Positions 3,201 through 20,000 of a DNA stretch of 20,000 bases are shown here, in pieces. Source of the DNA: Vermamoeba vermiformis (lineage: Eukaryota); the NCBI GenBank assembly GCA_045837725.1, contig JBEWZL010000221.1, positions 171,270 to 191,269 on the forward strand, in the 5' to 3' direction. Under the pieces are notes generated by a model. The model did no database searches. It saw only the letters and a program-made list of their open reading frames with translations, and was not told the origin of the DNA. Made by a program: the position numbers and the translations under genes. Each line of letters begins with the position of its first letter. Position 1 is the stretch's first letter.

Positions 3201-6200
3201 ATAGATTCTTTGAGGACAACATACTTAGTGGTCCTACACCTCCAACGAATCATTTGAATAATTTGCAGTTTTTGGATTTCAGTCACAATCATCTGTCGGG
3301 AACTTTGCCGGCTTTTTCATCGAGATTGATATATTTGTAAGTACTATAACTATATTTATATATACTTCATACATCAAGCTCATTAGTTTAATAGGGCACT
3401 TAACTTTAACATGTTAGAAGGCACTATTCCACCTGAAATTTTCAACATCAACGGCCTCGGATTGCTGTAAGTATTGCCATTTATGGTAATAGCCGGCACT
3501 GACTAACACGTGTGCCTTAATAGGGACTTGTCGTATAACTTCTTGAACGGCACCATTCCACGACTTCCAACCAGTCAAACCAGTTTGCGACACATGTAAC
3601 ACCTAACTTGATTTTATTTTGTTTTGTACGCGGTGCTAATTTCTATTGGCCTAGTGACTTGTCAAACAACAGACTGACCGGAGAACTTCCGCAAAGTTTA
3701 GTTACGATGGTTTCTATTCAGAACATGTACGTCAATTTCAACTATCATTTGATATTATTATGCAGTTACTCGATTGATCATTTGATACTCAAATGAGTTG
3801 TTTAAAAATACGGAGCGAGATCTAATGATTTTTTTTAGCATTTTGTCCAATAATTTGCTGTCTGGAAACTTCCCGTTCACTGGCACTCTGTTCAACATTA
3901 ACATTCTGTAAGTATCGTATTGTTTAATATGGAGCCTTATACTAACATTGAATGCAGTCGAATTGATCGAAATTTCTTGACGGGAAATTTCCCACGACAC
4001 TTTTTGGCAGCGGTTAACTTGGAGATTCTGTAAGTACACGTTAAATGGCCTATTTAATACATTTATAATATCTTTGCAGAGATTTATCGGACAACGAGCT
4101 GACTGGAGTTATTCCGTCGACCGCTGATCGGCCACGTAGATTGAAGGAATTATCGCTCGCCAGAAACAAATTAACGGGCGCAATTCCGCCGACTTTGTCC
4201 AATATTGCAGGTTTGGAACGATTGTAAGCTTACCATTGGTTATAATAATTCAGGCTTGTTAGAGGTTCTAACAATGTTTTAGGGATTTGTCGGGCAATCT
4301 GTTCATCGGAGGTATTCCGCCACAATTAGGAACTTTGCGACGATTACGAGCAATTGATTTCTCGAAAAATGATTTGATCGGAACCATTCCTGACACAATC
4401 GAAGACTTGACACAATTGGAGGTTTTGTAAGTGTTACGCTAACGGCCTAGTCACGTGCTTAACTGTGTTTCATGAACAGGGATCTTTCAGACAATCACAT
4501 CGAAGGCACGATTCCCGAATTCATCGGCAACTTGTTCCAACTTCAAGTGCTCAATCTTGGAGGCAACAACTTGGTTGGCTCTATCCCGAACTCGATTTTC
4601 AATTTGCGAGCCCTGGTCGAGCTGTAAGTATCGCGAATGACACGTCAAAAAAATGTCACATAACTAACTGACACCTTGTCTAGTGACTTAGGCGATAATC
4701 ATCTTCAAGGCACGGTTCCCAGAACTTTATTTACTTTACAGCGTGCTAAGGGACTGTAAGTACTAATCTTTTTTTTTGAAAGTCTGACCCGTGTCTCACG
4801 TACTTTTCTCAGCGATCTCTCGGACAACAATTTTGTAGGAACCTTGCCTTCAACATTGTCTCAGATGCGCACTCTCGAGTACTTGTAAGCCCTTAATAAC
4901 CACCCCATTAACTTTTTTTCTAACGTGTTTGCAGTAACATTGCCAACAATGCCTTCACTGGTCAAGTGCCGCCATTGCACAGCTTGGCTAACCTTAAAGA
5001 GATGTACGTTACATTAATCAAGTGACTAGCCAGTATATTAATGGTCCTTATAATAAGCTATGTGCAATCGAACAAGTTCAGTGGCTGCATCCGGTTGCCG
5101 CCGCAGTTCTCGGATCTGGATTCGAACAGCACGTGTGTTCTCGACAACAACAACTTTTGTTGCGCTGATTCAGCGTACAATTGTCGATTTACTGATGGTA
5201 CGTACGAATGAATACAGCTTTTTCTGGCACTTTCTAATGGTTCTGCAATAGGCCGATGCGACATCAATTCAGTTCTCAGAATTTCCTCAGGAAATCGAGT
5301 GAACATCAACGACGCTGATAGTTTCACAAGTAAGTCTCGAGTACAATGAGTATATACGGCAGTTTCTAATATTATCGTTTTAGAGCTCGTTGTGGAACGA
5401 GGTGGAACCTTGGTCATAACGCCATCAGCCAGCATGTCGCTAGATTGTTTGGAGCTGCAAGGCACAATTGACATTGAAGTGAATGAAGAGTACGAGGACA
5501 AGCAGTTTGAAATGGACTTGTTCGTCTATACCTGTGGATCCACGCAGAACGCGACTTTCCGCACCAGCAAAGGTTGTCGCATTTCACAGAACCGAACGAT
5601 CAGTCAAATTTCAGGCAATTTCAGATACGAACTGCAGCTGGATTGTTCGCTGAATTATATCTCGCAAGGTACACTCAAGTTTTCAATTTTTTCATGTTTT
5701 CGACATCTGGATCCCGCGGGACTTAACTTATGTCTATTTTTAGGCACTATCATTGCTATTATTGTAGCGTCATGTATCGCAGGAGCACTCGCGATTATTG
5801 TTGGTGCGGTGACGTACAGATACTTCAGAGGCAAGCGCCGTGTGAAGCAACTACTCAACAGAGTCGAGTTGTTGACTTTGACAACAAAAACGTCTGATTA
5901 TTCCACTCTACCGCAATGGCACGCTCCCGAACATTACGCTTTGAAACCAATTGAAGATATGCCTATTTACGTTGGTGGAACGAGGTTTGATTTTGGCGCC
6001 AAAGGCAACTTGCTCAGAATCGAGACCCAGTACAAAGATGTAATGAAAGTGCAAATCAAAACAAAACAAGCACGAAGAGGCGGTCGCGGCCCTGGTCTAA
6101 TCGAACGATTGCTCGACAAAAATATTACGGTGAAACTGCATCCCGTACAATCGGAGAAGTACCAGCTCGCGATAGATCCGCCCGAAATTCAAGTCAACGA

Positions 6201-7299
6201 AAAAGACACGGTAGACGTCACTTTATTACTGCAAATGAAGATGACTACGAAGACCAACGTGTCTTTATGGGTTGAAATCCCTGAGCTGAAGGAGTTCTCG
6301 TTGCTCGAGTTTACCGCCGCAAGTGAACCGTCACCTTGGGTCGACATTGACGAAGTTGATGGCATTACTGAATCACTCGGAGAAGGTGGTTTTGGCACAG
6401 TCTACAAGGCTCGATATAGAGGTCAAACTGTCGCCTATAAGAAGTTGAAGGTAAATCTCGCGGCATGCTTCAAAGTGATCACTCCTAACGCTCGATTTTT
6501 TTTTCACAGTTCCAAGAATTGAACGTGCAACAGTTCGAAGAGTTCAATCGTGAAGTCGCTATGATGATGAACTTGCATCATAAGAGCATTGTTCAGTTCA
6601 TTGGTGCGTCAAAAGTGCCAGGCAAACTTGCCATCTTGACCGAGTTCATTCCTGGCGGTAACTTGCAAACGCTGTTGAACACGAAAACTTTGGATATTAC
6701 GCTCAAGCTTAAGATTGCATTGGACATTGCCGAGGCATTACAGTTCTTGCACACGAATAATATTCTTCATCGCGACATCAAAGCGGAAAATATCTTGGTC
6801 GTGACCACGAACAGAGACGCCGCGATCAACGTCAAGTTAACGGACTTTGGCACAGCAAGATCAGTGTCTGAACAAGTCACTATGAAGTTCACTAAGGGCA
6901 TCGGCACTCCGACTTACATGGCTCCCGGTACGAACACTTTTTTTGACACGTGTCAAACAGTCACTTTTGGTTGCTGAAACTAACTTCGTATGTATAGAAA
7001 TCTTGGATAATAAGACATATGAAAAAGCAGCCGACGTCTACAGTTTTGGCATTCTATTATGGGTGCTAATAACGCAAGAGCAGCCCTACTCGTTCGTCCA
7101 ACAAGCATGGGAAGTCGCGAGTTACGTAATCTCCGGAAAGAGATTGCCTATTCCGTCAGACACACCAGTATCGGTTGCAGAGCTGATTAGAAAGTGTTGG
7201 GCTCAATTACCAGCCGACAGACCGACGTTTGATGATGTAGTGAAAGAGCTTTCGGTCATAGTAGAGATTTCAATGACGAAACTAATTAGCTTTTTCTAA
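292..7299 (+). CDS. LRR receptor-like kinase (signal peptide, N-cap, ~37 LRRs, Cys-rich/beta juxtamembrane region, single TM, cytoplasmic Ig-like linker, TKL-type kinase); 35 exons, ~1568 aa
   Basis: Manually spliced GT-AG exons: 292-518, 815-898, 1043-1111, 1169-1237, 1294-1356, 1411-1551, 1606-1671, 1727-1798, 1856-1999, 2057-2128, 2178-2249, 2306-2374, 2437-2505, 2566-2706, 2754-2897, 2954-3028, 3080-3145, 3205-3336, 3395-3466, 3524-3595, 3655-3726, 3839-3907, 3958-4029, 4080-4223, 4283-4426, 4480-4623, 4684-4755, 4813-4884, 4935-5003, 5058-5197, 5252-5329, 5384-5668, 5744-6450, 6510-6927, 6998-7299. They total 4707 nt in one open frame. Motifs: hydrophobic N-terminus MWLIRSLLLIVVLYG; N-cap CDWAGVIC; repeats such as LDLSDNHIEGTIPEFIGNLFQLQVL; TM TIIAIIVASCIAGALAIIVGAVTY followed by RGKRR; kinase motifs GEGGFG, VAYKK, HRDIKAEN, DFG, GTPTYMAPE, DVYSFG. 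Confidence 0.95.
815..5100 (+). repeat. Array of LRR-coding exon cassettes (one or two LRRs per exon)
   Basis: There are 28 internal exons: 20 single-repeat exons of 63-84 nt (mostly 69 or 72) and 8 double-repeat exons of 132-144 nt. All lengths are multiples of 3 and all exons are flanked by phase-2 introns at the same LRR position. Confidence 0.93.
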
Positions 7300-7468: not shown

Positions 7469-10127
7469 CTATATGTCCTCATCATCATCAAGGGAATCGT
7501 TTTCTTCACCTTCTTTAATGGGTATGGGTGCCAAACTCGTCAGTTGTTTCATCGATGGCATAGACCAATCGTTCTTGAAGAAATCAAGCATCAACAAGAA
7601 TCCTGGGCCCGTTTGGCTGTCTTCGCTGGCAGGAATAGCGACGAAGCTGATTGGTGGAACAAGTAATTTTGGTGTAGGAATGTCTTCGAGCTCTACCCTA
7701 GCGGTCTCAAAGTCATTGAACGCGGCTAAAAAGGAAGTTAAACGTACGTTAGGTTTTTCAGAGATTAAGTCAAAAATATTATTAATAATTATAATTATTA
7801 TTTTTAATACTTACAAGCAAAGTTGCAGAAAAGTGGCTCGTTGCCAAAGCCAATCATAATTTTGTCGTTTTCAATTAATATCTTCTCCTTATCGATTTGA
7901 TATTCTTGATTGAACAAAACTAACGTAGAGGATTTCACTTCGAACAGGCCTTCTTCCAAAAGTTCCTGCCAATTAGTATCGTCTTTTTCATAGCCTGCCA
8001 TATATCGTTTCTTAATAGCTTTGAAATCGATCGGGCCCAATATTGAATTCGCAGAAATGTTTTGTAATTTCCTGACTTTTCTCCATAAATTTGATAAAAT
8101 GAAGGCTGAGGTCTGAGTGGCCGGATTTTTCGGATCCGAAATAACCTTTGAAATGCATTGCAATCCAAACGCTGTGAAAATGTTCGAGTTCGATGGTGTA
8201 CCTTTGTCACGTGATCGACCATTAAAATAATCCAAAACAGCAATGATCGCTATTTCCTTCAGATAGTCGTGTGGTGTACTTCCATTCACTGAACCAGGTT
8301 CATGAACGTAAGGGAACCAATAGTCGCATCCATTCGTTGCAAACACAAAGTTGCCTCGCCATCGTTTTTGCAGGACTAAAGGCGGCGCGGAAGTGTCATC
8401 TGTCAAGCCCCAGTGCAAATTGTTGACACGTTCGTAGAGCTCGTGAGCGTAGCGTGAGAGTGCAGGTTGAAAAGTGCTTTGAAGTGTCATGTAGACTGCT
8501 GAGTTGAACAGTTTGCCGACTTCAGGCGTGTGGTTCAATTTCCAGTATTTAAAAATGAGCTCGGTGCGTAAAAACACTTTGTTTGTCTTCACGAACGGAT
8601 TGCCTTCGTGCAAATACTGCTGATCGAAAATGACGCAATCGAATTGTTTCACTTTAGTCAGCTCAAACGCGCTGTTTTTCTCGGAATTTTCGTCGCTATT
8701 ATCCCACACCTTCATAACAGGACTGCCAGATCCGCTACTGAGATAAATAATCATCGTGAATTTTGACACTTGCCCTTTAGCAGGATCATAGTAAGGAGTG
8801 TCCATATGGGCTTCAAACTTTGCATCGCCCGGGGCAAATCTGTTGCAGCGAAACACATGATTCACCGCCGTAAACCTCTTGCAATCCAGGTCGGCTGAAT
8901 CTTTTTCCATAGCTTCAAATGCCTCGGTCAACGCGCTGCTTAACTTCTCAGAAGAGAAAATGAAGCGCTCGCCACCTCTCGTGCTCGAATTTGACGGTTT
9001 TTGATAAAGTCCCAACTGATCCAATTGTAGGAGCAGATCCAGACTCGACCCACCAATAGTCGTTTTGTAAATATGCATCGTCTCGGATAAATTTTCAAGA
9101 GGAGACATTGTAAATGCCATGCTTTGTTTGTCGCCAAGATGTAACGCTCGATCCAGCGGCAAAATGCACTCAAAGTTGTGATAGGACAAGTCGCGACCAT
9201 CGACCCATACTGCATATAGTGGGCTGTTTGCGTCGTTATTTTTGTTGTCATCACTTTGTTTTTCGCTCACTTCATCGTCTTCGTCTTTGGTCGCTTTCTT
9301 GTGTCGGTTTGAGGGTAACTTTGGGATGCTTTTTGGAGCCAGCTGTGCGACAGATTGAAGCAGCGATTGATCGATGTCAGAGAGCTCTTCGAGGTCTTTG
9401 ATATATTTGAGAATTCGTCTGTTCTTCGAGGGGCAGAAAGAGAACGGCAGTGATTGAAACTCCGCGGAGGGCACAAATTCGTCATCCAAAATGTCCAGTA
9501 ATTTGTTCAAAACTTGCTTCTCGCTTTGATCTAACCAGCCACGCGAGTCAGCCAACCATAAATCGCGCACTCCAACGCAAAAATAGAGTGCTTCTTGTTC
9601 GTTCAGAGAAGTCAGTATTGAGGGATCCCTACAAACTTGTTGCATGAATGCCAGAGACCTTTTCGAGGCTAATTGGTGAGTACTTTTGTCGATTATAAGC
9701 GGCCATAGCTTTCCAGTGATAATAGCTCCTGAAACAAGATTTTGCATCAAAAGTTGATCTTCGATCTCTGCAGGCTCGAGAGCGTTGTTGAGCTTTTCAT
9801 CGCATAATATCAACACTTTATCTTTTTTGTTCACTTTGAGCGTTTGAACCTTGCAATACCTTGCGATTTGCGAACTGTAATAAATAAAATTATTCAATTA
9901 TTAGATCGAGGTTAGATCTGATCAAAAATTCAAATCTGCTTACGAATCATTAACACGTTCATGTTTGTTTTTTATAGATTCCTCTTTTTCCGTTTTCCTG
10001 GAGCTGATAATAATTTTAGATCTTGAATCATTAATACCAGCGATTGCTTCTAAGTTACGTACCTAATTTTTGCTTTCTTATTCGGAGCAAGATCTTCTTT
10101 ATTGCTCAATTTTCTTTTGCGTTGCAT
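7469..10127 (-). CDS. Uncharacterised 2-oxoglutarate/Fe(II)-dependent oxygenase-domain protein, 4 exons, ~813 aa
   Basis: Exons 10127-10063, 10003-9944, 9874-7815 and 7725-7469 total 2442 nt, in frame, with GT-AG junctions. The facial triad is H-x-D (FEAHMDTPYYD) plus a distal His (QYLHEG), followed by KVFLRTE in the expected 2OG-binding position. The N-terminus MQRKRKLSNKEDLAPNKKAK resembles a bipartite NLS, and the C-terminal tail is acidic. Confidence 0.8.
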
Positions 10128-10494
10128 AGTGGCTAAACTCGAGAGAATAATGCGGAAAAAAAATTCAATCAAAGAATTAAATAGCCAGGGACCTTCAACT
10201 TTTCCTGGAATTTATTACGTAAATTGTGCCATGTTTTCTGGCCCGTAGAAGCAGAAATAATGTTTTATAATTGATCTTGGTCCACAAACAGGGGAAGCTC
10301 ATCTTCATTCGTAGGTAAGCGACCTCGAAGTTACCTTCAAATTGTTGTTTATGATACATAGAGTAGTATAGTAAAAGTAGTATGACCGTTGCGTAACAAT
10401 ACCTTACGAGGCCGCAAAAAAGGTTTAAATCCGTTTCTCCGTTTGTCCGTGTTCGAAAATAAATATCCGAGCAGGCAATTGTGAAACAATAATT

Positions 10495-11542
10495 ATGAAA
10501 CAACACGTATTACTATTATTAACATTTATTATCGCCTTACAAGTCGGCACGATGATGGGCAAAGCGTACAAAGCTGTGATTATTGGCGCATCTGGTGAAG
10601 TCGGTGGTCACGTCTTAAAAGCACTTTTGAGCTCACCAAACTGCACTCATATCACTAGTATTGGCAGAAGAAAATTGGAATTTCCTGAAGATCAACAAGG
10701 CCTCGAGAAATTGAGCCAGCACGTAGTCGACATGGACAATCTGGAACAAGAAGTAAGTCAAATATTATCTCAATAATTTTAAAATAATTTTAGGAATATT
10801 TTGTTAATATTTTAAATTGTATTTGTAATATTTGAGTTGTCTGGAATTTTTCACTAAATTTTTCAAGGCGAAAGATCTCGTGAAGGACCACGAAGTCGCT
10901 TTCATTACTCTCGGAGTCGGTAGACCGTCGAAAGAAACAGAGGAATACTTGAAGAAAGTTGAAGTTGGATATAATACAGCTTTTGCAAAGGCGTGCAAGA
11001 ACGGAGGCACAAAACACATCTCTTTCTTGTCCTCGCCTGGAGTCAGCCACAGCTCTTGGATTCCTGTACTAAGAGTACGTATATAATACAAGCATTACGG
11101 ATACGATTACTAGGTTCCTATAGAAAATGTTCTGAGCATGTACGGAATCTGACTGCATCCGGTTTTATTAGGTCAAAGCTCAACTGTACGATAATCTCAA
11201 GGAGCTCAATTTCGCAAGAACGAGCTTTTTCTGCCCAACAGTAATCATGACACCTCAAGCGCGCTACGGATGGGTGGATTCGTTTTACATTAACTTGTGG
11301 AAGGGTCTGTCGCCTATTCTACCTAACAAATACAAAGGCGCAACATCAGAAAGCATCGGAAAATCAATGGTATTGAATGCTGAGTTGACTGAAGCAACTG
11401 GCGTCGAAGAATTGTATTGGACGGTAAGTAGTCCCTTTGATTCGCAAAAATTAGCTGCACGTTATTAATCTTATTGCCATTTTAGGACTTTAAAAGAATA
11501 TTGAGATTGAAAGATCCTAAAGCTGACCCCAGCAAGTGGTAA
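10495..11542 (+). CDS. NAD(P)-binding atypical SDR, HTATIP2/TIP30/CC3-like; 4 exons, ~257 aa
   Basis: Exons 10495-10752, 10868-11074, 11172-11423 and 11486-11542 total 774 nt. It has the Rossmann motif VIIGASGEVG plus SIGRRKL, AFITLG and FAKACKNGGTKHISFLSS, which are typical of the CC3-like SDR subgroup. The true start could be the downstream Met (MMGKAY). Confidence 0.85.
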
Positions 11543-11689: not shown

Positions 11690-14600
11690 TTACTGCTGGG
11701 CTGATTCAGACACCGAACTCGTGGCGTCAGTGTCCGAAGAAGAGCCACCTGAGTCAGATGAAGACGAGCTCATTGAAGCCTCAATTGCCAACTTGCCAAA
11801 TGCAGTCTTAAGCACATCACGTGGCTTAGGGCGTTCACTGAAAACGATTGCATGAGATAAAATTTCGAAAGGTGAAAATTATATAAGGTACTTACAGCGC
11901 ACCAAAGCCGTTGCTCAACTTAGGGTTAGATTTCCAAGAATAGACACACTTTCCTTTTTTGGAAAAGACGAGGACAGCAGGCTGGGCCATACCGTTAACA
12001 TATCCGTGTCGCCTAATAAGCGGCAGTCAGCAAGGGTCGCTTAATAAATGAACGCAAAGGTACGTACTCTGAGACATTCAACATGAACTGATCAGCAATT
12101 GTATTTTCAGGCTCGCCAATCACAGGATAAGTCAAGCCCCACTTGTTAGCGGTCTTTGTGATGCTGCGTTGGTTTTCAGATGAAATTCCGACTAGCATGC
12201 CTCCCTTAGCAAGGATCTTCGTGAAGTACTTGTTCCAGTTTTGCATGTAGCGCTTCATGAAAAATTTTTAGATCCAAAAATTTACGCTACAAAATAAACG
12301 TGCCACTTACGTTGCAGAATGGGCACCACGAACCACGGAAGACCACTACAACGAGGAATCGGTGCTTTGAAATTTCATCGTTCAACCAATCAACGAGTCG
12401 CTCGTACTTCTCGGGAGATTTCGTCAAAAATCCAACGTTGGGAATGAGACTTGAATTAGCGCTTGACAAAGATCTGCTCGAGACGGAAGTCAATGAGCTA
12501 CTTGACACTCTGCTGTCTAGTGACGGTCGGTTCTCAACCGAAGATTCGATTTCCGAGTCTTCTTCTTCTGGGAAAGTACCAGGAGGTGCGAACGCTAGAC
12601 ATATAAATTAGCATTATTGCATATAAATTTTTTGTTGTACCTTTGAGAATGGCTTGTTGGATGTAATCAGTAACGCCCTCTTCGTCGCCGACATCCCCAG
12701 CACAACGAGTGCACATTTGTTGGGCTTCAGGCATCTCTTCGGCCTTCTGTTTGAATTTTCTCAAGACAGGAAGGTACTGCGATATGTTCTCGTTCAAACG
12801 ATCGATGATCTTAGGCGACATGTAGAGCACAAATCCGCCGACCATGAAGTAGTCTTTGTCGAGCATCACGTGATCAGGGTTCAATGACTTTGTTATTCTC
12901 TTTTGCGAGATGCGTTTTGTGACCAACGTGCTCTTTTTCTAAACTATCGCATTGTTAGTTACTTCAATACTTGATCACATGTTAGTAACTTACCGAAATA
13001 GTGTCGAGGAGCGTATTAATCTTAGTGGCATTTTCTTTGCAGAAATCTTGCAAAGCTGGCTCTGCGACAGGTTTGCCTAAGGCGACGCTCTCAAGCAACA
13101 GCGATAAGCGAGACAAGTTGTAACGAGCAGCAGGTGAGATGGGCTCTGTTTATATCACGTTGTTAGGATTGGTCGTGAAATTTCACGTGCACAAAGAGGA
13201 CGTACCTTTTGTTAAACCAGCCGCGTCAGGAGCGGCTATAGCGCGGCAATAGAACTTCTCGAACATAATTGCTGCAATACCCTTAGTCTTAATCACGTCT
13301 TCATGAGCAAAAGAGAAGGTCGATTTCATCTTGGCATCGATGCGTTGCAACAAGGCGACCATTTGAGTCGGGATCGAGTTCTTATTGTCAATAATTCCGT
13401 TGATCATCTTCGTGGCAAACTTGATTAGTTGCTTGGCATTCTTGGCGCTTTCATTTTCTTCTTTAGTTCGCTTCTTATTGCTGACCATGCTCGACACTTG
13501 GAGCTCCTTGTCGTACTTCAGAACATCAGCGATGACGTCACCGAACATTTTTTTCATGTGAGACGAGCAAGTCAAGCATAAGTATCGCACGATGATTTGC
13601 GTAGTGATTCTAGTGTCGTAGAATAAGAGCTCGAAAGATGGGAAATCATCTTTCATGATGAAGCCCCAGTTGTCTTTGAAGTTTTGCTTCACTGAATCTA
13701 ATGACAAAGCCGATATTAGTTATGCTTACTCTAGTTAGAATGATTAGTACCTGATGACGTGAACTCAAGGTCAACAGCCCAGTTGAGCAGATCCGCCAAT
13801 CGACCCTCGTCATTGAACACACGTAACAAACTGTCAATAAGCGCGACATCGACACGTGCTCCGTAGCTGCTTTGAAACAGAACGTTCATGAAATTCTTGT
13901 CAGAAGTGAGGGTATTGAGCATTTCCTGGCCGACCACGTTTTCGGTGATTTGTTGATACTTAACACTCTGTAATAAACGTCAGATCCGGTCGCCAAAAAT
14001 AAACGAAAATTAACTAAGTCTTACCTTTTTGACTCGCTTGGAGAGCTTCTTGTAGAGTCTATTATTAGGCTTCCAATGGCAACATCAATTTGCCCGCCTT
14101 CTTGTTCTTTGTCAGTGTTGAAGTATGAAACAAAGAACTCGCCCTCAGGGGTCATTAAAAATCGATGTTTTTTGCCAGGAAAAGTCTTTGATTTTAACGG
14201 CACGAAGCGCTCGTCCAAAGAAATGTCCCATACGTTGATTTCTATAAATAGACATATTGAGTTACCTTATTGCTAATCCATATCGGATGACTTACTGTTT
14301 TTAACCAAAACTAGTAAAAATCCATTCCTGAAGCAAATCCAGTTCACACGGGCTTCCATTAACTCCTTGAAATTCTTCTTTGAGGCGCCCATTGAAGAGG
14401 CATTATGGAAAGATTGTCCCTTCATATGGTTAGGCATGTAGTAGAAGTCTACTAAGCCCTTTACGTTGCCAGTAACAAGCGTGTTTTCGTAGATCTTCAT
14501 AGCGGAGATTGCAAATTCGGTTGATACTTCATAGTCGCGAGCTGGTTGGGAAAAACGGTTAGCCTCAACTGCGCCCAAAATATTGCGAGAGAAATTTTAG

Positions 14601-15533
14601 GTAAATTTCATATTTAACAATTTCCAAAAACGGAAAATCACGTATTTTTAGATTAATTGATTTTAACTTACTCTCATCCGCAATATTCCAGATATAAAGC
14701 TTCTCAGATGTAGCTGCGGCGATAAACTTTTCGTCTTGCTCGATCATAGTGATTTTGAAGTAATTTTTGAGTATTCTTCGGAAGATCAATTTGCCGCTTT
14801 CTGTGTCGAACACCAAAACCGACAAGCCATCACTAAATAACAATCGGCTGTTATTAATAGATGACAGTTTATGGTCGAATTGTTCGGTGGTAGCGACTTC
14901 TTCACCTTCTAATTGCACGGGCTTGGATTTGGCCGCTTGAAAACCTTTTAAAGTCAAAAGCATTAGTATCCATTGCTCAAGGAGAGAAGCAACGATATTT
15001 TAAAATATGATTGAGCAATAAAGCTTACTTTGTGACATTTCTTCTATGGATCCCTTTTGGTCTAGATGCGGTTTGTTAGCCAATGCTTTTCTTGTCCTAT
15101 TTTGTTACATACCTTGCCATTTAATATTCAGAAGCGAGCCACCTGTTAGTACGCAGAATAAGGATTCTTCTGAAGCCAATGTAACGGCGATCTTCAGATC
15201 TTTTTCTTGCGAGGTTGAAAATTTCTTCTTTGACTCCACATTGTAAATTTGAAGCTCTTGGTATTGAGCCGTCCTTTGGTGCACGGAGGCAATGAAGGGA
15301 TAGGAAAATTGGAATGATACTGTTGGGTTTTGATTCTTTACCGTGATCTCGTTCTTGCGTGCCAGATCCGAGAAGATGTAGTCGCCGGTATTATTAAATG
15401 CGGTGACCACATAGACGTCTTCTTGAGTAGCAATATCATTCTTGCTTATGAGGCTATAGGCTTGACGGCCATAGTATTTTTCTTTCAAGAAACTAGGACT
15501 GATGTCGCCTGCTATAGCAATCGTAGTAGCCAT
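11690..15533 (-). CDS. Multidomain protein: WD40-like beta-propeller region + degenerate RasGAP domain + Ser-rich linker + AhpC/TSA (peroxiredoxin-like) CxxC domain; 13 exons, ~1035 aa
   Basis: Exons 15533-15113, 15061-15029, 14944-14672, 14568-14296, 14241-14025, 13967-13751, 13697-13206, 13145-12994, 12938-12641, 12594-12311, 12252-12068, 12012-11896 and 11837-11690. All junction phases match except exon 5/6 (see findings). WD-like strands: LYIWNI, LVTGNVKGLVDFY, INVWDIS. RasGAP-like: LLNWAVDLEF, LLFYDTRITTQIIVRY, IMFEKFYCRAIAAPDAAGL, ARYNLSRLSLLLESVA, INTLLDTIS. Redoxin: VVVVFRGSWCPFC, LVGISSE, YPVIGEPENTIA, QPAVLVFSKKGKCVYSW, ERPKP. Confidence 0.8.
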
Positions 15534-15678: not shown

Positions 15679-17372
15679 TCAATGCCAGTCAAAATGATGC
15701 TTGATCCGATCGAACCTCTGGCCGTTCAGATCGTGTTGATGAATAGTAACTTCCATTAAGCCGTTGTCACCAAACATCCAATCCTGATCCGTCTCCACTT
15801 CCATAAGCAGCCGATCTTGACATTGGTGCGGGTAATCACGTGAGCAAACGATATGATCGCTATGGTAGCTATTATACACTCGCTCTTGTTCGTTGTTGGC
15901 AGACGGAGCGCAACTCCGAAGGTTCATCTCGTCGCAGTACTTCGCCAGACAGGCCTCGTATGTCCTTTGAAATGGCGTGCTCAATCCTAACAGCGCATGC
16001 TTGCCATACTTCTTGCGTAGAAAATTCGTGATCGTAGTGAGAGCGAGGTCTTCGTCGTCCGTCAAATCAAACAGCGGCAAGTTGTGCGAGTACTTCCCGA
16101 TCGTGAGGATCTGCGTGAACTCCGCGCGACAAGACTTGTAGATGTGTCGCGCCTTCTCGGAATTTGGGCCCACAGGTCTCGTTCTGATTAAATTTTCGTT
16201 TGTGTTAGACGCGTAGAAGTGAAGTTTAGCGTTGCTGTGAAGGTTCTTGTGGTCACTGTTAACGAGCACGTAAAATATTCCGCGCTTTGGCAATAATCGC
16301 CTAATATGGAAATCATCGGGAATATCTTCAAGATTCAATTGAAATAGCAGCTGCGGGATTTCTAAGCCCTTTTCCGTTTTGAAGTTCGGCACCCAACTCT
16401 CGGGCAGATCGGGACATCCTCCGAACTTGCTTCGTCCTACAGGTATGTTGTCTTCATTAGGCTCGGGGACTGTATTAATTCGCACCTGCCAGTACATTTG
16501 ATAGGCTGCTTTATATAGAGCTCGGTCGTTCTTCAGAAACGGCTCGTAGACTTGCATCCGTAACTCGTTCTTGTGATCTTCAAGCAGCTTCTTTAAGTAC
16601 TCTCCTTTATCTCTGACCTCTAATAATATGTTAGTACTGTTTTAACAAATGTTTGCAATTGATTAGCGAGAACGGATCTCGCGATCAAGCGCAGTTGGAG
16701 ATATCATCGTACGTACCTCTTATTTTCGATATCCACTTGCGCCACGAGATATTTCCTAATTTAGGCACAACATCTTCTTTCGTAATTTTAATTGCGTTTG
16801 CGGGATCGAATGACAGTTTGGCACGTCGCAGTTTTCCGCACCAGCGGTCCCATAGAGCTTGGTTGTGGCTATTGACGATATCAATCCACAGCTGGAAGTG
16901 CGGGGAAGAGCTCAATTCCTATGTGATTCAAGTTGTTAGCTGCAGATTCAAATTTTATGATTAAATCCGTTACCTCGTGCAACGTGAACCATTCAGCCAA
17001 TGCAACACTTTGCCATTGCTTACAAACGTGAAGTAAATATTTTGCATCAACGAGCGAGAATATATAACGCTGAATCTCGGCTGGTAAGGAGCGCCAACAT
17101 TTGGAACGGATGGCGCTATTTAATTTTGCAATTTTAGAATTAATATTCGCGCTATAATTTTTTGTGTCAATGCTGTCTAATATATTTTGTGCTTGGCTAA
17201 TATTCCCTTGATTTATAAGCGCTAATGATTTTTGTAAGATGGCGTAGATGTTGCCAGGATTTGCTAACAGAATTTGATCTACGAGCTTAAGCGCCAGACT
17301 CGTATTATTGGCATCAATTAATGTTGCAACATGGTGCAATTGCTTCTTCAGCGCCTCAGATGAGATGTCCAT
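15679..17372 (-). CDS. TPR-like + F-box + DUF1963 (YwqG-like) protein; 3 exons, ~513 aa
   Basis: Exons 17372-16974, 16918-16717 and 16619-15679 total 1542 nt, in frame. TPR-like helices: ALKLVDQILLANPGNIYAILQKSLALINQGNISQA. F-box: SLPAEIQRYIFSLV..LLHVCKQWQSVA. DUF1963 motifs: SKFGGCPDLP, LLFQLNLEDIP, LPKRGIFY, HALLG, WMFGDNGLMEVTIHQHDLNGQRFD. Confidence 0.85.
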
Positions 17373-17613
17373 CTGTCAATTCGCAACGGTAACTTGAAGT
17401 AATTATTACTTTAAGGCTGGTCTGCGCACGTAACTTTGTAGTACTGAACTAACATCCGTGTATTCATCAACACAACTTTGAACGAAAAGGCAAAACCGAA
17501 AAATTCTGGATGCCAAAAAGCGAAAAATCGAAAGCGGAGCGTTCGGTACAAAAAAGATTCTTCTTACTTCAAATCACATCGCCACGAACAACAAAACACA
17601 GTGCAATCTTCAA

Positions 17614-18793
17614 ATGAAAGCAGTCTTGGTATTGCTTTTCGCTACCAGCGCGATGGCCGACAATACCCGGAGTTACGAACCTCCAGTGACCTCTATCATA
17701 TTTAGTAAGCTCCTTAACACGATAGCCTTCTTGTATGACATATTAATAAGTATTTCAGCGATCATTTTTGGCACCGTTTCGGTTCTTAACGTGATCTGGC
17801 TTGTAAAGCTCAGGCGACGAAAAATTGACACTGCTCCTCTAAATATTGAGAAGTAAGTAATTAACTATCAAAAAAATTTAAATGACGAAAAGAAAGAAAT
17901 TTGAGCGGATCTTATTCGCGCATACGACTAAAAATGAGGATTAATCTAGATTTTTAGGCAAACGTTAGTAAATTCAACACTTCCCGAGGGAGTAGTTGCG
18001 AGCAACATCAATGTTTCCGATAAGAGTCGTCCTAGCTTGTTACGCGAAGTTCGTCAGGATGAGCAGCTCGCTTGGGCTCACGAAAGGCCTGCTCCAAGTA
18101 AGTACTATACAATTACTAAACATATATAATATTCATTATGCTGATGTAACTAATTTCTTCAGTGATGCAAAACCTTACCGTCTTTTTGATCTTGGCTACT
18201 TTCTTGTCCGTCGGTACATTCGCTGTTGCCTTGTCATTTTCTTTTGTGCAAGGTTATATCGACATTGTTTTCTTAACTTTGTACTGTCCTATAGCTTTCA
18301 TTGTGTAAGTTGAAATGTTTCCAAATCTGGATTTCGCGAATCCAGTACTTACTTTTTTTTTAGTGGCATTTTCGATCTCACAACCTTTCTTGTCTCCAAA
18401 CAAGTGAGCTCCTCTGTGATCTACGCAGTCACTAGCAAACGAGTTTTCATTTTTTCATCGGTGAGATCTGGTGGTTGCTGCGGCGGAAAGATCGAGACAG
18501 TGCGTGCTTATGACCTCGATGGCATTCATCAAACTACAATCACTCGAAAGGATGACGGTAGTGGTACTTTGACTTTCAGCGCTAGTGCTGTTGATGAGGG
18601 TACGTTGTCAAATGATCTGCTTGCGATCCAAAAAATTTCCGCTAACTTACAATGAATGATAGATTTCAACCACCATGACCACCACAATTACGGCTTGTCC
18701 TTCGCCTTCACTGACATCCCCAATGTTACCGCGGTCAAGGATCTGATCGAGCAGTACAAAAGTCTCAGAAAGAAACAAGCTGTTAACCATTAA
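17614..18793 (+). CDS. Membrane protein with a bacterial PH-like (YdbS/YdbT-type, membrane-flanked) domain, copy A; 6 exons, ~277 aa
   Basis: Exons 17614-17704, 17759-17852, 17958-18097, 18163-18304, 18364-18599 and 18663-18793 total 834 nt. Order of motifs: signal peptide MKAVLVLLFATSAMA, a TM followed by KLRRRK, EQLAWAHERP, a TM hairpin, then YAVTSKRVFI, DGSGTLTF and FTDIPNVTAVKDLI, which match the bacterial PH pattern. Confidence 0.75.
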
Positions 18794-18993
18794 CAAACTT
18801 AAGTAGTAGTCAGTTGTACGGTATAATATATGCTGTTAATTATTCGTGTTCAATTCTCGTGTAATTTCTGGATGCCAAAAACGCGAAAAATCGAAAGCGG
18901 AGCGTTCGGTACAAAAAGTAAAGAAAGGATTCTTCTTACTTCAAAAACATCATATCATTGCCACGAACAACAATGGTCGCACTTAATTTTCAA

Positions 18994-20000
18994 ATGAAAG
19001 CAGTCTTGGTATTGCTTTTCGCTACCAGCGCGATGGCCAACCATACCCGTGGTTATGATCCTCCAGTGACCTCTATCATATTTAGTAAGCTCCGTAACAC
19101 GATAGCCTTCTTGTATGACATATTAATAAGTATTTCAGCGATCATTTTTGGAACAGTTTCGGTTCTTCATGTGATCTGGCTTGTAAAGCTCAGGCGACGA
19201 AAAATTGATACTACTCCTTTAAATATTGAGAAGTAAGTAAATTAAAATACTGTCAAAAAAAATTAAATGACGAAAAGAAAGAAATTTGAGCGGATCTTAT
19301 TCGCGCATACGACTAAAAATGAGGATTAATCTAGATTTTTAGGCAAACGTTAGTAAATTCAACACTTCCCGAGGGAGTAGTTGCGAGCAACATCAATGTT
19401 TCCGATAAGAGTCGTCCCAGCTTGTTACGCGAAGTTCGTCAGGATGAGCAGCTCGCTTGGGCTCACGAGAGACCTGCTCCAAGTAAGTACTATATAATAC
19501 TAAACGTAGATAATATTCGTTATGCTGATGTAACTAATTTCTTTAGCGATGCCAAGCGTTATCGTCTTTTTGATCCTTGCTACTATCTTGTCCGTCAGTA
19601 CATTCGCTGTTGCCTTGTCATTTTCTTTTGTTATGCAAGGTTATATCGACATTGTTTTCTTAGCTTTGTACTGTCCCACAGCTTTCCTTGTGTAAGTTGA
19701 AATTCATTTCCAAATCTGGATTTCGCGAATCCTTACTTTTTTTTTTTAGTGGCATGTTCGATCTCACCGCCTTTATTGTCTCCAAACAAATGGGCTACTC
19801 TGTGATCTACGCAGTCACTAGCAAACGAGTTTTCATTTTTTCGTCGATGAGAGCTGGTGGTTGCTGCGGCGGAAAGATCGAGACAGTGCGTGCTTATGAC
19901 CTCGATGGCATTCATCAAACTACACTCACTCGAAAGGATGACGGTAGTGGTACTTTGACTTTCAGTGCTGCTGCTATTGCTGACGGAGGTTCGTACCAAA
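18994..20000 (+). CDS. Tandem paralog (copy B) of the bacterial-PH-like membrane protein, truncated by the window end
   Basis: Exons 18994-19084, 19139-19232, 19343-19482, 19547-19691 and 19750-19988 have the same structure and phases as copy A, with an intact frame. The last exon lies outside the window. Confidence 0.75.

Follow-up and report, generated by a model that had tools for sequence, protein, structure and literature searches.

A gene on the minus strand of a 20,000-nucleotide stretch of the Vermamoeba vermiformis genome (assembly GCA_045837725.1, contig JBEWZL010000221.1, positions 171,270 to 191,269; hereafter the window, numbered from its first letter) is predicted to encode a single protein in which a WD40-like beta-propeller region is followed by a RasGAP-like domain, a Ser/acidic linker and a CxxC domain of the AhpC/TSA fold. 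On balance, we read this product as a pseudo-GAP and a CxxC oxidoreductase combined in one protein. The reading is carried by the gene structure, by the three folds as modelled through homologues, by substitutions at key residues and by the conservation of the fusion in other eukaryotes.

The gene was reconstructed with a splice search that considered all GT..AG pairs linking adjacent open frames in phase, with one junction adjusted against the protein of a homologue. The predicted gene runs from an ATG at 15533 to a stop codon at 11690-11692 and has 13 exons, all joined at GT-AG sites and separated by introns of 46-130 nt. Its coding sequence (3081 nt, 1026 amino acids) contains only the terminal stop. 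The splice signals of the region (GTAAGT-like donors, CTAAC-like branch sites and YAG acceptors) read as eukaryotic, with short introns of the fungal type. The preliminary description of this DNA had reported that exons 6-13 splice in phase without a stop from position 13967. The frame of the 13-exon gene is indeed open to 11690, but exon 6 starts at 13965 (acceptor ending in TTACAGAG) because a start at 13967 would break the phase. Database and folding evidence was gathered per exon or through homologues rather than on the spliced 1026-residue protein itself. The Pfam scan covered 12 exon-level open frames, six of which had no family match at an expect value (E) <=1, and an Rfam scan of the whole window returned no match.

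Relatives came from an exhaustive HMMER search with P0001, a 508-residue homologue that is 87% identical to the predicted protein over exon 7 and 79% identical over 499 residues (amino acids 187-683 of the model). The search yielded 92 proteins at E<=1e-3, all of which were scanned with Pfam. Three of them combine RasGAP and AhpC-TSA domains: P0008 (970 amino acids), P0037 (705 amino acids) and P0074 (563 amino acids), the last with an AhpC-TSA score of 24.6 bits, slightly below the cut-off. P0008 comes from a transcript assembly, where it is marked as a complete open reading frame (ORF); both PF00578 and PF00616 are listed for it (RasGAP at residues 484-646, AhpC-TSA at 813-914). P0037 has no propeller; it carries the canonical RasGAP motifs FRENT and FLRF and the same CxxC redox domain. 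Word-index searches were narrower in yield: exon 7 recovered only P0001 (a search of longer proteins, 403 candidates), exon 10, with the linker and CxxC, recovered none of 207 candidates, and the P0008 redox region recovered only P0008 itself among 210. The ESM Atlas gave no usable match for P0037. The features of the gene, all on the minus strand, are as follows.

11690..15533, minus strand: whole gene, 13 coding exons, 1026 amino acids (splice search and translation; collinear blastp alignment to P0008).
15113..15533, minus strand: exon 1, amino acids 1-140, with the start codon at 15533; a 148-codon open frame with ATG, probably encoding N-terminal propeller blades.
15029..15061, minus strand: exon 2, an uncertain micro-exon of 33 nt, amino acids 141-151; good GT/AG sites and a CTAAC branch site; optional, the frame also surviving its skipping.
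14672..14944, minus strand: exon 3, amino acids 152-242, beta-propeller blades; weak Pfam propeller matches (E 0.08 and 0.13); P0001 starts here.
14296..14541, minus strand: exon 4, amino acids 243-324, beta-propeller blades; aligns to P0001 residues 58-138, which are beta in the AlphaFold2 (AF2) model, with predicted local distance difference test scores (pLDDT) of ~65-88.
14025..14241, minus strand: exon 5, amino acids 325-396, last blade and a low-confidence connector (gene model; P0001 residues 147-222 at pLDDT <50).
13751..13965, minus strand: exon 6, amino acids 397-468, N-terminal helices of the RasGAP fold; aligns to P0001 residues 213-283, helical in the AF2 model.
13206..13697, minus strand: exon 7, amino acids 469-632, core RasGAP domain (PF00616; P0001 87% identical).
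13618..13620, minus strand: Tyr 495 in the place of the arginine finger (from a MAFFT alignment that includes P0037 and canonical RasGAP matches).
13228..13263, minus strand: degenerate FLR motif FEKFYCRAIAAP, with Lys 616 for Arg and Arg 620 for Pro (alignment).
12994..13145, minus strand: exon 8, amino acids 633-683, C-terminal helices of the RasGAP fold; aligns to P0001 residues 449-499, helical, pLDDT >90.
12641..12938, minus strand: exon 9, amino acids 684-782, helical region after the GAP domain and first part of the linker, with CTRC at 12702-12713 (gene model).
12311..12594, minus strand: exon 10, amino acids 783-877, Ser/acidic linker, helix YERLVDWLNDE, strand beta-1 and WCPFC at 12314-12328 (alignment with P0008, P0037 and P0074).
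12068..12252, minus strand: exon 11, amino acids 878-938, core of the AhpC/TSA fold (PF00578; 48% identical to P0008).
11896..12012, minus strand: exon 12, amino acids 939-977, GMAQPAV at 11973-11993, with Pro 950 at the position of the catalytic Arg of peroxiredoxins (Prx) (alignments).
11690..11837, minus strand: exon 13, amino acids 978-1026 and the stop codon, final helix (ERPKPRDVL) of the redox domain, then a Ser/Asp-rich tail (GFGAL/ERPKP junction).

Several of these junctions are reproduced in the proteins of relatives. For example, the exon 3 donor and exon 4 acceptor give the ADETRDYEV join of P0001, and the GTACTA donor at 13750 (exon 6) also reproduces a junction of P0001.

The middle of the protein carries a RasGAP-like domain. 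The ORF of exon 7 matched the RasGAP family (PF00616) at E 3.2e-14, with a score of 53.7 bits against a cut-off of 28.3. A sequence search with the same exon against the PDB returned no match at E<=0.01, which indicates that this GAP domain is strongly divergent by sequence. The AF2 model of P0001 has a mean pLDDT of 76.5 that rises above 90 over most of its helical GAP half, and Foldseek matched this half to NF1's GAP-related domain (GRD) and to p120GAP (6v6f_B, 1wq1_G and 6ob2; E ~1e-7, TMt 0.62-0.75). Furthermore, the P0008 model matched IQGAP1 (rank 2), SynGAP and NF1. Judged on these homologue models, the RasGAP fold appears intact in the family, and the middle region does model as a RasGAP in a protein (P0001) that is 79% identical to amino acids 187-683.

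The arginine finger and the FLRXXXPAXXXP motif are the catalytic and Ras-binding signatures of RasGAPs, according to a review (PMC12871552). We called the residues at these columns in a MAFFT alignment of the V. vermiformis protein, family members and six canonical RasGAP matches. The protein has Tyr 495 at the finger (LLFYDTR versus the canonical FRxN[ST]) and Lys 616 at the FLR arginine (FEKF). Relative to FLRXXXPAXXXP, its motif (FEKFYCRAIAAP) keeps the F, the A and the last P, and replaces L with E, R with K and P with R. Canonical matches had Arg at both columns in five of six cases; the sixth (P0075) has a Leu finger and Lys in the FLR motif. The two columns read as follows in the relatives.

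P0001: finger Tyr; FLR arginine column Lys.
P0008: finger Leu; FLR column not Arg (alignment ambiguous).
P0019: finger Leu (ambiguous, L or Q); FLR column Asp.
P0074: finger Lys; FLR column Lys.
P0092: finger Lys; FLR column Arg.
P0037: finger Arg; FLR column Arg (FLRF).

P0037 ties the catalytic columns to known structures: a PDB sequence search matched it to SynGAP (3bxj, E 3.7e-17), p120GAP (1wer, 5e-16) and also NF1, and its FRENTL and FLRF are identical to those of SynGAP 3bxj. By its motifs, P0037 looks like an apparently active-GAP counterpart of the domain studied here.

The label RasGAP used in the preliminary description is thus upheld for the family match and the fold of P0001, but both catalytic arginines are replaced. 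With Tyr 495 at the finger and Lys 616 at the FLR arginine, we amend the label to RasGAP-like and probably inactive. The alignment suggests a RasGAP-fold pseudo-GAP that is probably incapable of canonical stimulation of GTP hydrolysis. The lysine alone is not disabling because a 'secondary arginine/lysine' is mentioned in the same source (PMC12871552). IQGAPs offer a precedent, as they have a Thr finger and YYR in place of FLR and are described there as having no RasGAP activity and no Ras binding through the GRD (PMC12871552). By this analogy, Ras binding by the GAP-like domain is also in doubt.

We also considered whether the domain could be a working RasGAP that relies on other residues (e.g., Arg 498 or Lys 616) and is switched on or off by the CxxC domain with oxidation, along the lines of the redox-gated idea in the preliminary description. 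An arginine does lie three residues past the finger position (LFYDTR), and F, A and P are retained in the FLR region. Furthermore, P0037 keeps the canonical FRENT and FLRF beside the same redox domain, so that elsewhere in the wider group a GAP does occur linked to such a domain. However, the finger is Tyr in the V. vermiformis protein and P0001, Leu in P0008 and (as L or Q) P0019, and Lys in P0074 and P0092; only P0037 has the arginine. Exon 7 also finds no solved RasGAP by sequence at the threshold given above, and in IQGAPs the loss of the finger and the change in FLR accompany the loss of GAP activity (PMC12871552). We consider a redox-gated GAP of this kind improbable, and retain the pseudo-GAP.

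The C-terminal domain has the AhpC/TSA fold and a thioredoxin-like active site. The ORF of exon 11 matched AhpC-TSA (PF00578) at E 3.7e-6 (27.3 bits against a cut-off of 26), and exon 10 matched Redoxin below threshold (E 0.13). Scores of individual exons are low because the redox domain is split over exons 10-13; in the orthologues P0008 and P0037 the whole AhpC-TSA domain reaches 39.9 and 51.6 bits, respectively, and the spliced C-terminus aligns to the AhpC-TSA domain of P0037 with 38% identity over 144 amino acids (E 2e-34). The redox-domain part of the P0008 model has a pLDDT of 86-95 and matches PrxQ (5iiz, 0.68) and Sulfolobus Bcp1 (3drn, 0.70), with overall TMt values of 0.66-0.70 in Foldseek. 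As described initially, the motif FRGSWCPFC is intact (amino acids 868-876, window 12340-12314) and the Ser/acidic linker is borne out by 17 Ser among 58 residues. The second CxxC noted in the linker (CTRC, amino acids 759-762, window 12713-12702) is present as well, but P0008 lacks it and P0074 has no CxxC at that place. Unconserved in these two proteins, it is given no weight here. The relatives keep the C-terminal CxxC of the domain (WCPWC in P0008, WCIFC in P0037 and WCPFC in P0074, the last as in the V. vermiformis protein).

The residues around the CxxC depart from those of peroxiredoxins. The C-terminal domain of P0008 weakly matched PDI A4 (8.4e-4) and Xanthomonas PrxQ/BCP (5e-3) in a PDB sequence search. 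In the PrxQ alignment, the WCPWC of P0008 places its second Cys on the peroxidatic Cys (TPGC) and its first on the Thr of peroxiredoxins, and the Pro of GMANPG (GMAQPA in the V. vermiformis protein) occupies the column of the Prx Arg in 'iERSTFLL'. The whole WCxxC of P0008 aligns with WCGHC of PDI A4. The V. vermiformis protein shares the redox-site residues of P0008 (WCPFC, GMAQPA), and in place of the PxxxTxxC context of peroxiredoxins it has Cys in the Thr column and Arg in the Pro column (FRGSWCPFC). PRX-like2 proteins are reported to have no typical Prx catalytic signature and to share the thioredoxin CXXC in a study of cyanobacterial peroxiredoxins (PMC3514251). The NCBIfam SelL-related model NF040769 matched only P0037 (E 3.9e-8), and the 33 bits scored there fall well short of the cut-off of 120; NCBIfam gave nothing for P0008 or for exons 10 and 11.

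Because the Prx Thr and Arg are missing and the active site is thioredoxin-like (WCPFC with an opposite Pro), this domain is most likely a thiol-disulfide oxidoreductase of the PRX-like2/thioredoxin type, or a redox sensor, rather than a peroxidase. The peroxiredoxin-like domain of the preliminary description is therefore retained as an AhpC/TSA fold with a CxxC, but not as a catalytic peroxiredoxin. A true peroxidase module, in which a PrxQ/BCP-type domain tethered to a signalling scaffold scavenges or senses H2O2, would fit the Pfam family (AhpC-TSA), the PrxQ/BCP proteins that are the best structural matches of the P0008 C-terminal domain, and the alignment of the second Cys with the peroxidatic Cys. 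However, the replacement of the Prx Thr by Cys and of the Prx Arg by Pro, the alignment of the CxxC with WCGHC of PDI and the PRX-like2 proteins reported without the signature (PMC3514251) speak against it, and we rate a peroxidase as less probable still than a redox-gated GAP.

The same type of domain occurs in bacteria. One pattern scan of genome contigs gave, from 182 pattern matches, 17 loci encoding stand-alone proteins of 161-262 amino acids that are 21-34% identical to the redox domain. The motif F[FY]RGxWCPFC is present in 16 of the 17 (the remaining locus, L017, has GGEWCPWC), and PF00578 was found in three of the four bacterial ORFs scanned. A recent transfer of the redox domain from bacteria was considered and dropped, this one scan giving no sign of it (all 17 loci only 21-34% identical).

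The propeller-like, RasGAP-fold and CxxC AhpC/TSA-fold regions belong, as far as the exons and homologous proteins indicate, to one gene. Exon 10 lacks an in-frame Met, and none occurs downstream until past the CxxC, so the redox domain is not translatable alone from these exons. A single blastp high-scoring segment pair (HSP) joins residues 187-1015 of the model to residues 172-970 of P0008 (25% identity, E 2.9e-67), and a single HSP to P0074 covers GAP, linker and CxxC (E 2.9e-33). Furthermore, the exon 12/13 junction (GFGAL/ERPKP) reproduces the LFGALARPKP of P0037, and all four proteins (the model, P0008, P0037 and P0074) keep a helix ahead of the redox domain (Y..L.DWL..E...H.F), whose codons lie at the end of exon 10. 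We treat the fusion as real because of the missing Met, the single HSPs to P0008 and P0074 and the P0037 junction, and together with the phase of the exons they confirm the initial description of one fused gene with WD40-like, RasGAP-like and redoxin parts. The alternative of an artefact, with two neighbouring genes (one for propeller and RasGAP, with its end near 12640, the other for the redoxin) mistaken for a single one, is very unlikely. In its favour, retention of intron 9 would bring a stop after 35 further codons, the donor of that intron is a non-consensus GTACAA and P0019 is a propeller-RasGAP protein with no redox domain. Against it, exon 10 supplies no Met before the CxxC, P0008 (a complete ORF from a transcript assembly) and P0074 each span GAP, linker and redox domain in one HSP, and all four proteins retain the helix ahead of the redox domain.

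The N-terminal region (about amino acids 1-390) may be described as a WD40-like beta-propeller region on the strength of homologue models. WD40 and propeller profiles gave nothing significant on the exons of the window; the best were the two beta-propeller families on exon 3 listed above (E 0.08 and 0.13). P0014, a fragmentary relative, matched Beta-prop_WDR3_1st at 23 bits against 154, and had weak WDR5 (E 0.04) and RACK1 matches. The P0001 model has runs of four strands over residues 1-180 (pLDDT ~63-88 up to residue 145 and <50 at residues 147-222), and that of P0008 has four-strand blades at residues 160-325. Foldseek searches with the P0001 and P0008 models returned designed eight-blade propellers, Fbw7, beta-TrCP, Cdc4, WDR11 and IFT-A WD40 domains at 1e-5 to 1e-6. 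The WD40-like strands reported upstream thus hold as four-stranded blades in homologue models, but without a significant Pfam WD40 match.

A RasGAP-domain tree (quick maximum likelihood, 79 of the 86 rows with a domain match, after dropping the seven with <150 profile positions) grouped the V. vermiformis model and P0001 with P0019, P0074 and P0092 at a Shimodaira-Hasegawa-like approximate likelihood ratio test (SH-aLRT) support of 83. P0037 is compatible with a line that started as an active RasGAP-redoxin fusion and whose propeller-bearing forms later lost catalysis, although the tree does not settle this. Nor does the tree show a single origin of the fusion, although one would be compatible with it.

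Several observations weigh against reading the gene as a propeller-bearing pseudo-GAP with a CxxC oxidoreductase. Exons 1-2 (amino acids 1-151) have no homologue alignment, and exon 1 has no Pfam match. About four blades are modelled confidently and the N-terminal 150-190 residues lie outside the confident models, so the models show part of a propeller rather than a closed ring. The exon 9-10 junction combines its weak, non-consensus donor with the shortest intron of the gene (46 nt). Residue calls come from a MAFFT alignment at 20-25% identity, and the loss of the finger is not proof that all GAP activity or GTPase binding is lost. The P0008 model is poor overall, with a mean pLDDT of 61.9, residues 1-160 at <50 and a shallow alignment; its N-terminus is poorly modelled because the alignment depth there is only 1-4. 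It was built on a small MAFFT alignment, the two larger ones having scattered fragments and drawn GAP-only proteins onto the redox domain. P0019 combines propeller and RasGAP without a redox domain, which makes the redox module not obligatory in the family, unless the P0019 model is truncated. Finally, the tree does not unite all fusion proteins, P0008 sitting on a very long branch and P0037 being unresolved among ordinary RasGAPs.

The protein resembles canonical RasGAPs (p120GAP/RASA1, neurofibromin GRD and SynGAP) in that exon 7 scores above the PF00616 cut-off and the all-helical fold of P0001 (79% identical) matches NF1 GRD and p120GAP at E ~1e-7. It differs from them in its Tyr finger and FEK in place of FLR, in the failure of its GAP exon to find a solved structure by sequence at E<=0.01, and in its neighbours, which are a propeller and a redox domain instead of C2, PH, SH2 or Sec14 domains. 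The GRDs of IQGAPs (IQGAP1 3fay, IQGAP2 5cjp) share with it a RasGAP fold with a lost finger and an altered FLR (PMC12871552), and that of IQGAP1 is the second-ranked structural match of the P0008 model. However, IQGAPs have Thr and YYR where this protein has Tyr and FEK, combine the GRD with CH, IQ and WW domains instead of a propeller and a redox domain, and the RasGAP-domain tree gives no specific grouping of the V. vermiformis domain with the IQGAP-like matches.

PRX-like2 and SelL-related proteins share with the redox domain the AhpC/TSA fold and a thioredoxin-type CxxC without the Prx signature (PMC3514251). F[FY]RGxWCPFC is common to the V. vermiformis protein and 16 of the 17 bacterial loci. 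Unlike the stand-alone bacterial relatives, the domain described here is the C-terminus of a signalling-type protein. PRXL2A/B are counted among the PRX-like2/SelL-related AhpC/TSA proteins with a CxxC. A conceptual parallel is TBC1D24, in which a TBC RabGAP-like domain with a missing catalytic arginine is joined to the oxidative-stress domain TLDc. The likeness is conceptual only; the folds are unrelated (TBC versus RasGAP, TLDc versus AhpC/TSA).

The window contains several other coding regions. Directly upstream of the gene and on the same strand, a 320-codon frame (15679-16641, minus strand) matches DUF1963 (PF09234, E 8.3e-16); its stop lies ~146 nt from the start codon of the studied gene, making the intergenic space very tight. 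Further upstream, a frame at 16881-17375 (minus strand) has a TPR_19 match (E 8.2e-7) and a sub-threshold F-box-like match (E 1.1e-4). Just downstream of the stop codon, frames on the opposite strand (10429-11468, plus strand) contain a Gly-rich GASGEVGGHV motif and have no per-exon Pfam match at E<=1e-3; we take the motif to resemble an NAD(P)-binding fold. At 7804-9897 (minus strand), an uninterrupted frame of 697 codons matches no Pfam family at E<=1e-3; no other unexplained coding stretch of the window is as large. A multi-exon gene at 5350-7299 (plus strand) begins with a large frame that has a hydrophobic, membrane-span-like stretch and no Pfam match, and continues with a protein kinase domain over two frames (Pkinase E 3.1e-31, PK_Tyr_Ser-Thr E 2.4e-20). 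A tandem duplication with a period of ~1385 bp occupies 17605-19986 (plus strand) in five collinear blocks that are 90-96% identical. Every copy has frames opening with a signal-peptide-like MKAVLVLLFATSAMA and a Cys/Gly-rich frame, and the three frames scanned had no Pfam match.

From this arrangement of domains, we infer that the protein is a scaffold: partners bound by the propeller and the pseudo-GAP would be brought together with a CxxC redox module. The propeller region (about amino acids 1-390) would likely act as a protein-docking platform, and the pseudo-GAP (about amino acids 400-700) could at best bind a small GTPase or another partner. The disordered, flexible Ser/acidic linker would tether the CxxC module. 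Propeller and pseudo-GAP would choose the partner, possibly a Ras-family GTPase, and the tethered CxxC domain would then reduce, oxidise or sense a cysteine at that partner. The coupling of thiol-redox state to Ras-family signalling put forward in the preliminary description is a conjecture.

The combination of RasGAP and AhpC-TSA was presented initially as an unfamiliar architecture. It is rare, occurring in three of the 92 relatives, but it is not unique to this genome: sequence databases already contain such fusion proteins with automatic Pfam labels, as in the P0008 record. A full-text literature search that covered few subscription journals found no paper describing a RasGAP joined to an AhpC-TSA, redoxin, peroxiredoxin-like or thioredoxin-like domain, and none on a dedicated protein in which a GTPase-regulator fold is linked with a thiol oxidoreductase.

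Domain fusions are among the few hints of functional linkage that sequence alone provides, and small GTPases are redox-sensitive (e.g., through oxidation of a Ras cysteine). A bolder and distinctly speculative interpretation, to which we attach a low probability, is that these proteins form a small, undescribed eukaryotic family of dedicated redox-GTPase devices, in which a GTPase-binding module of the RasGAP fold is hard-wired to a thioredoxin-type CxxC domain that would read or write the redox state of thiols in a Ras-family GTPase or in the complex it forms. P0037-like members would then be active, redox-controlled GAPs, and the V. vermiformis protein and P0008 would be pseudo-GAP scaffolds with a propeller, bringing a reductase to the GTPase. 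If the redox domain is a mere passenger, or if the GAP fold binds no GTPase, the gene would be just another lineage-restricted multidomain protein. An apparently active-GAP member and pseudo-GAP members that carry the same CxxC domain make this family a natural experiment.

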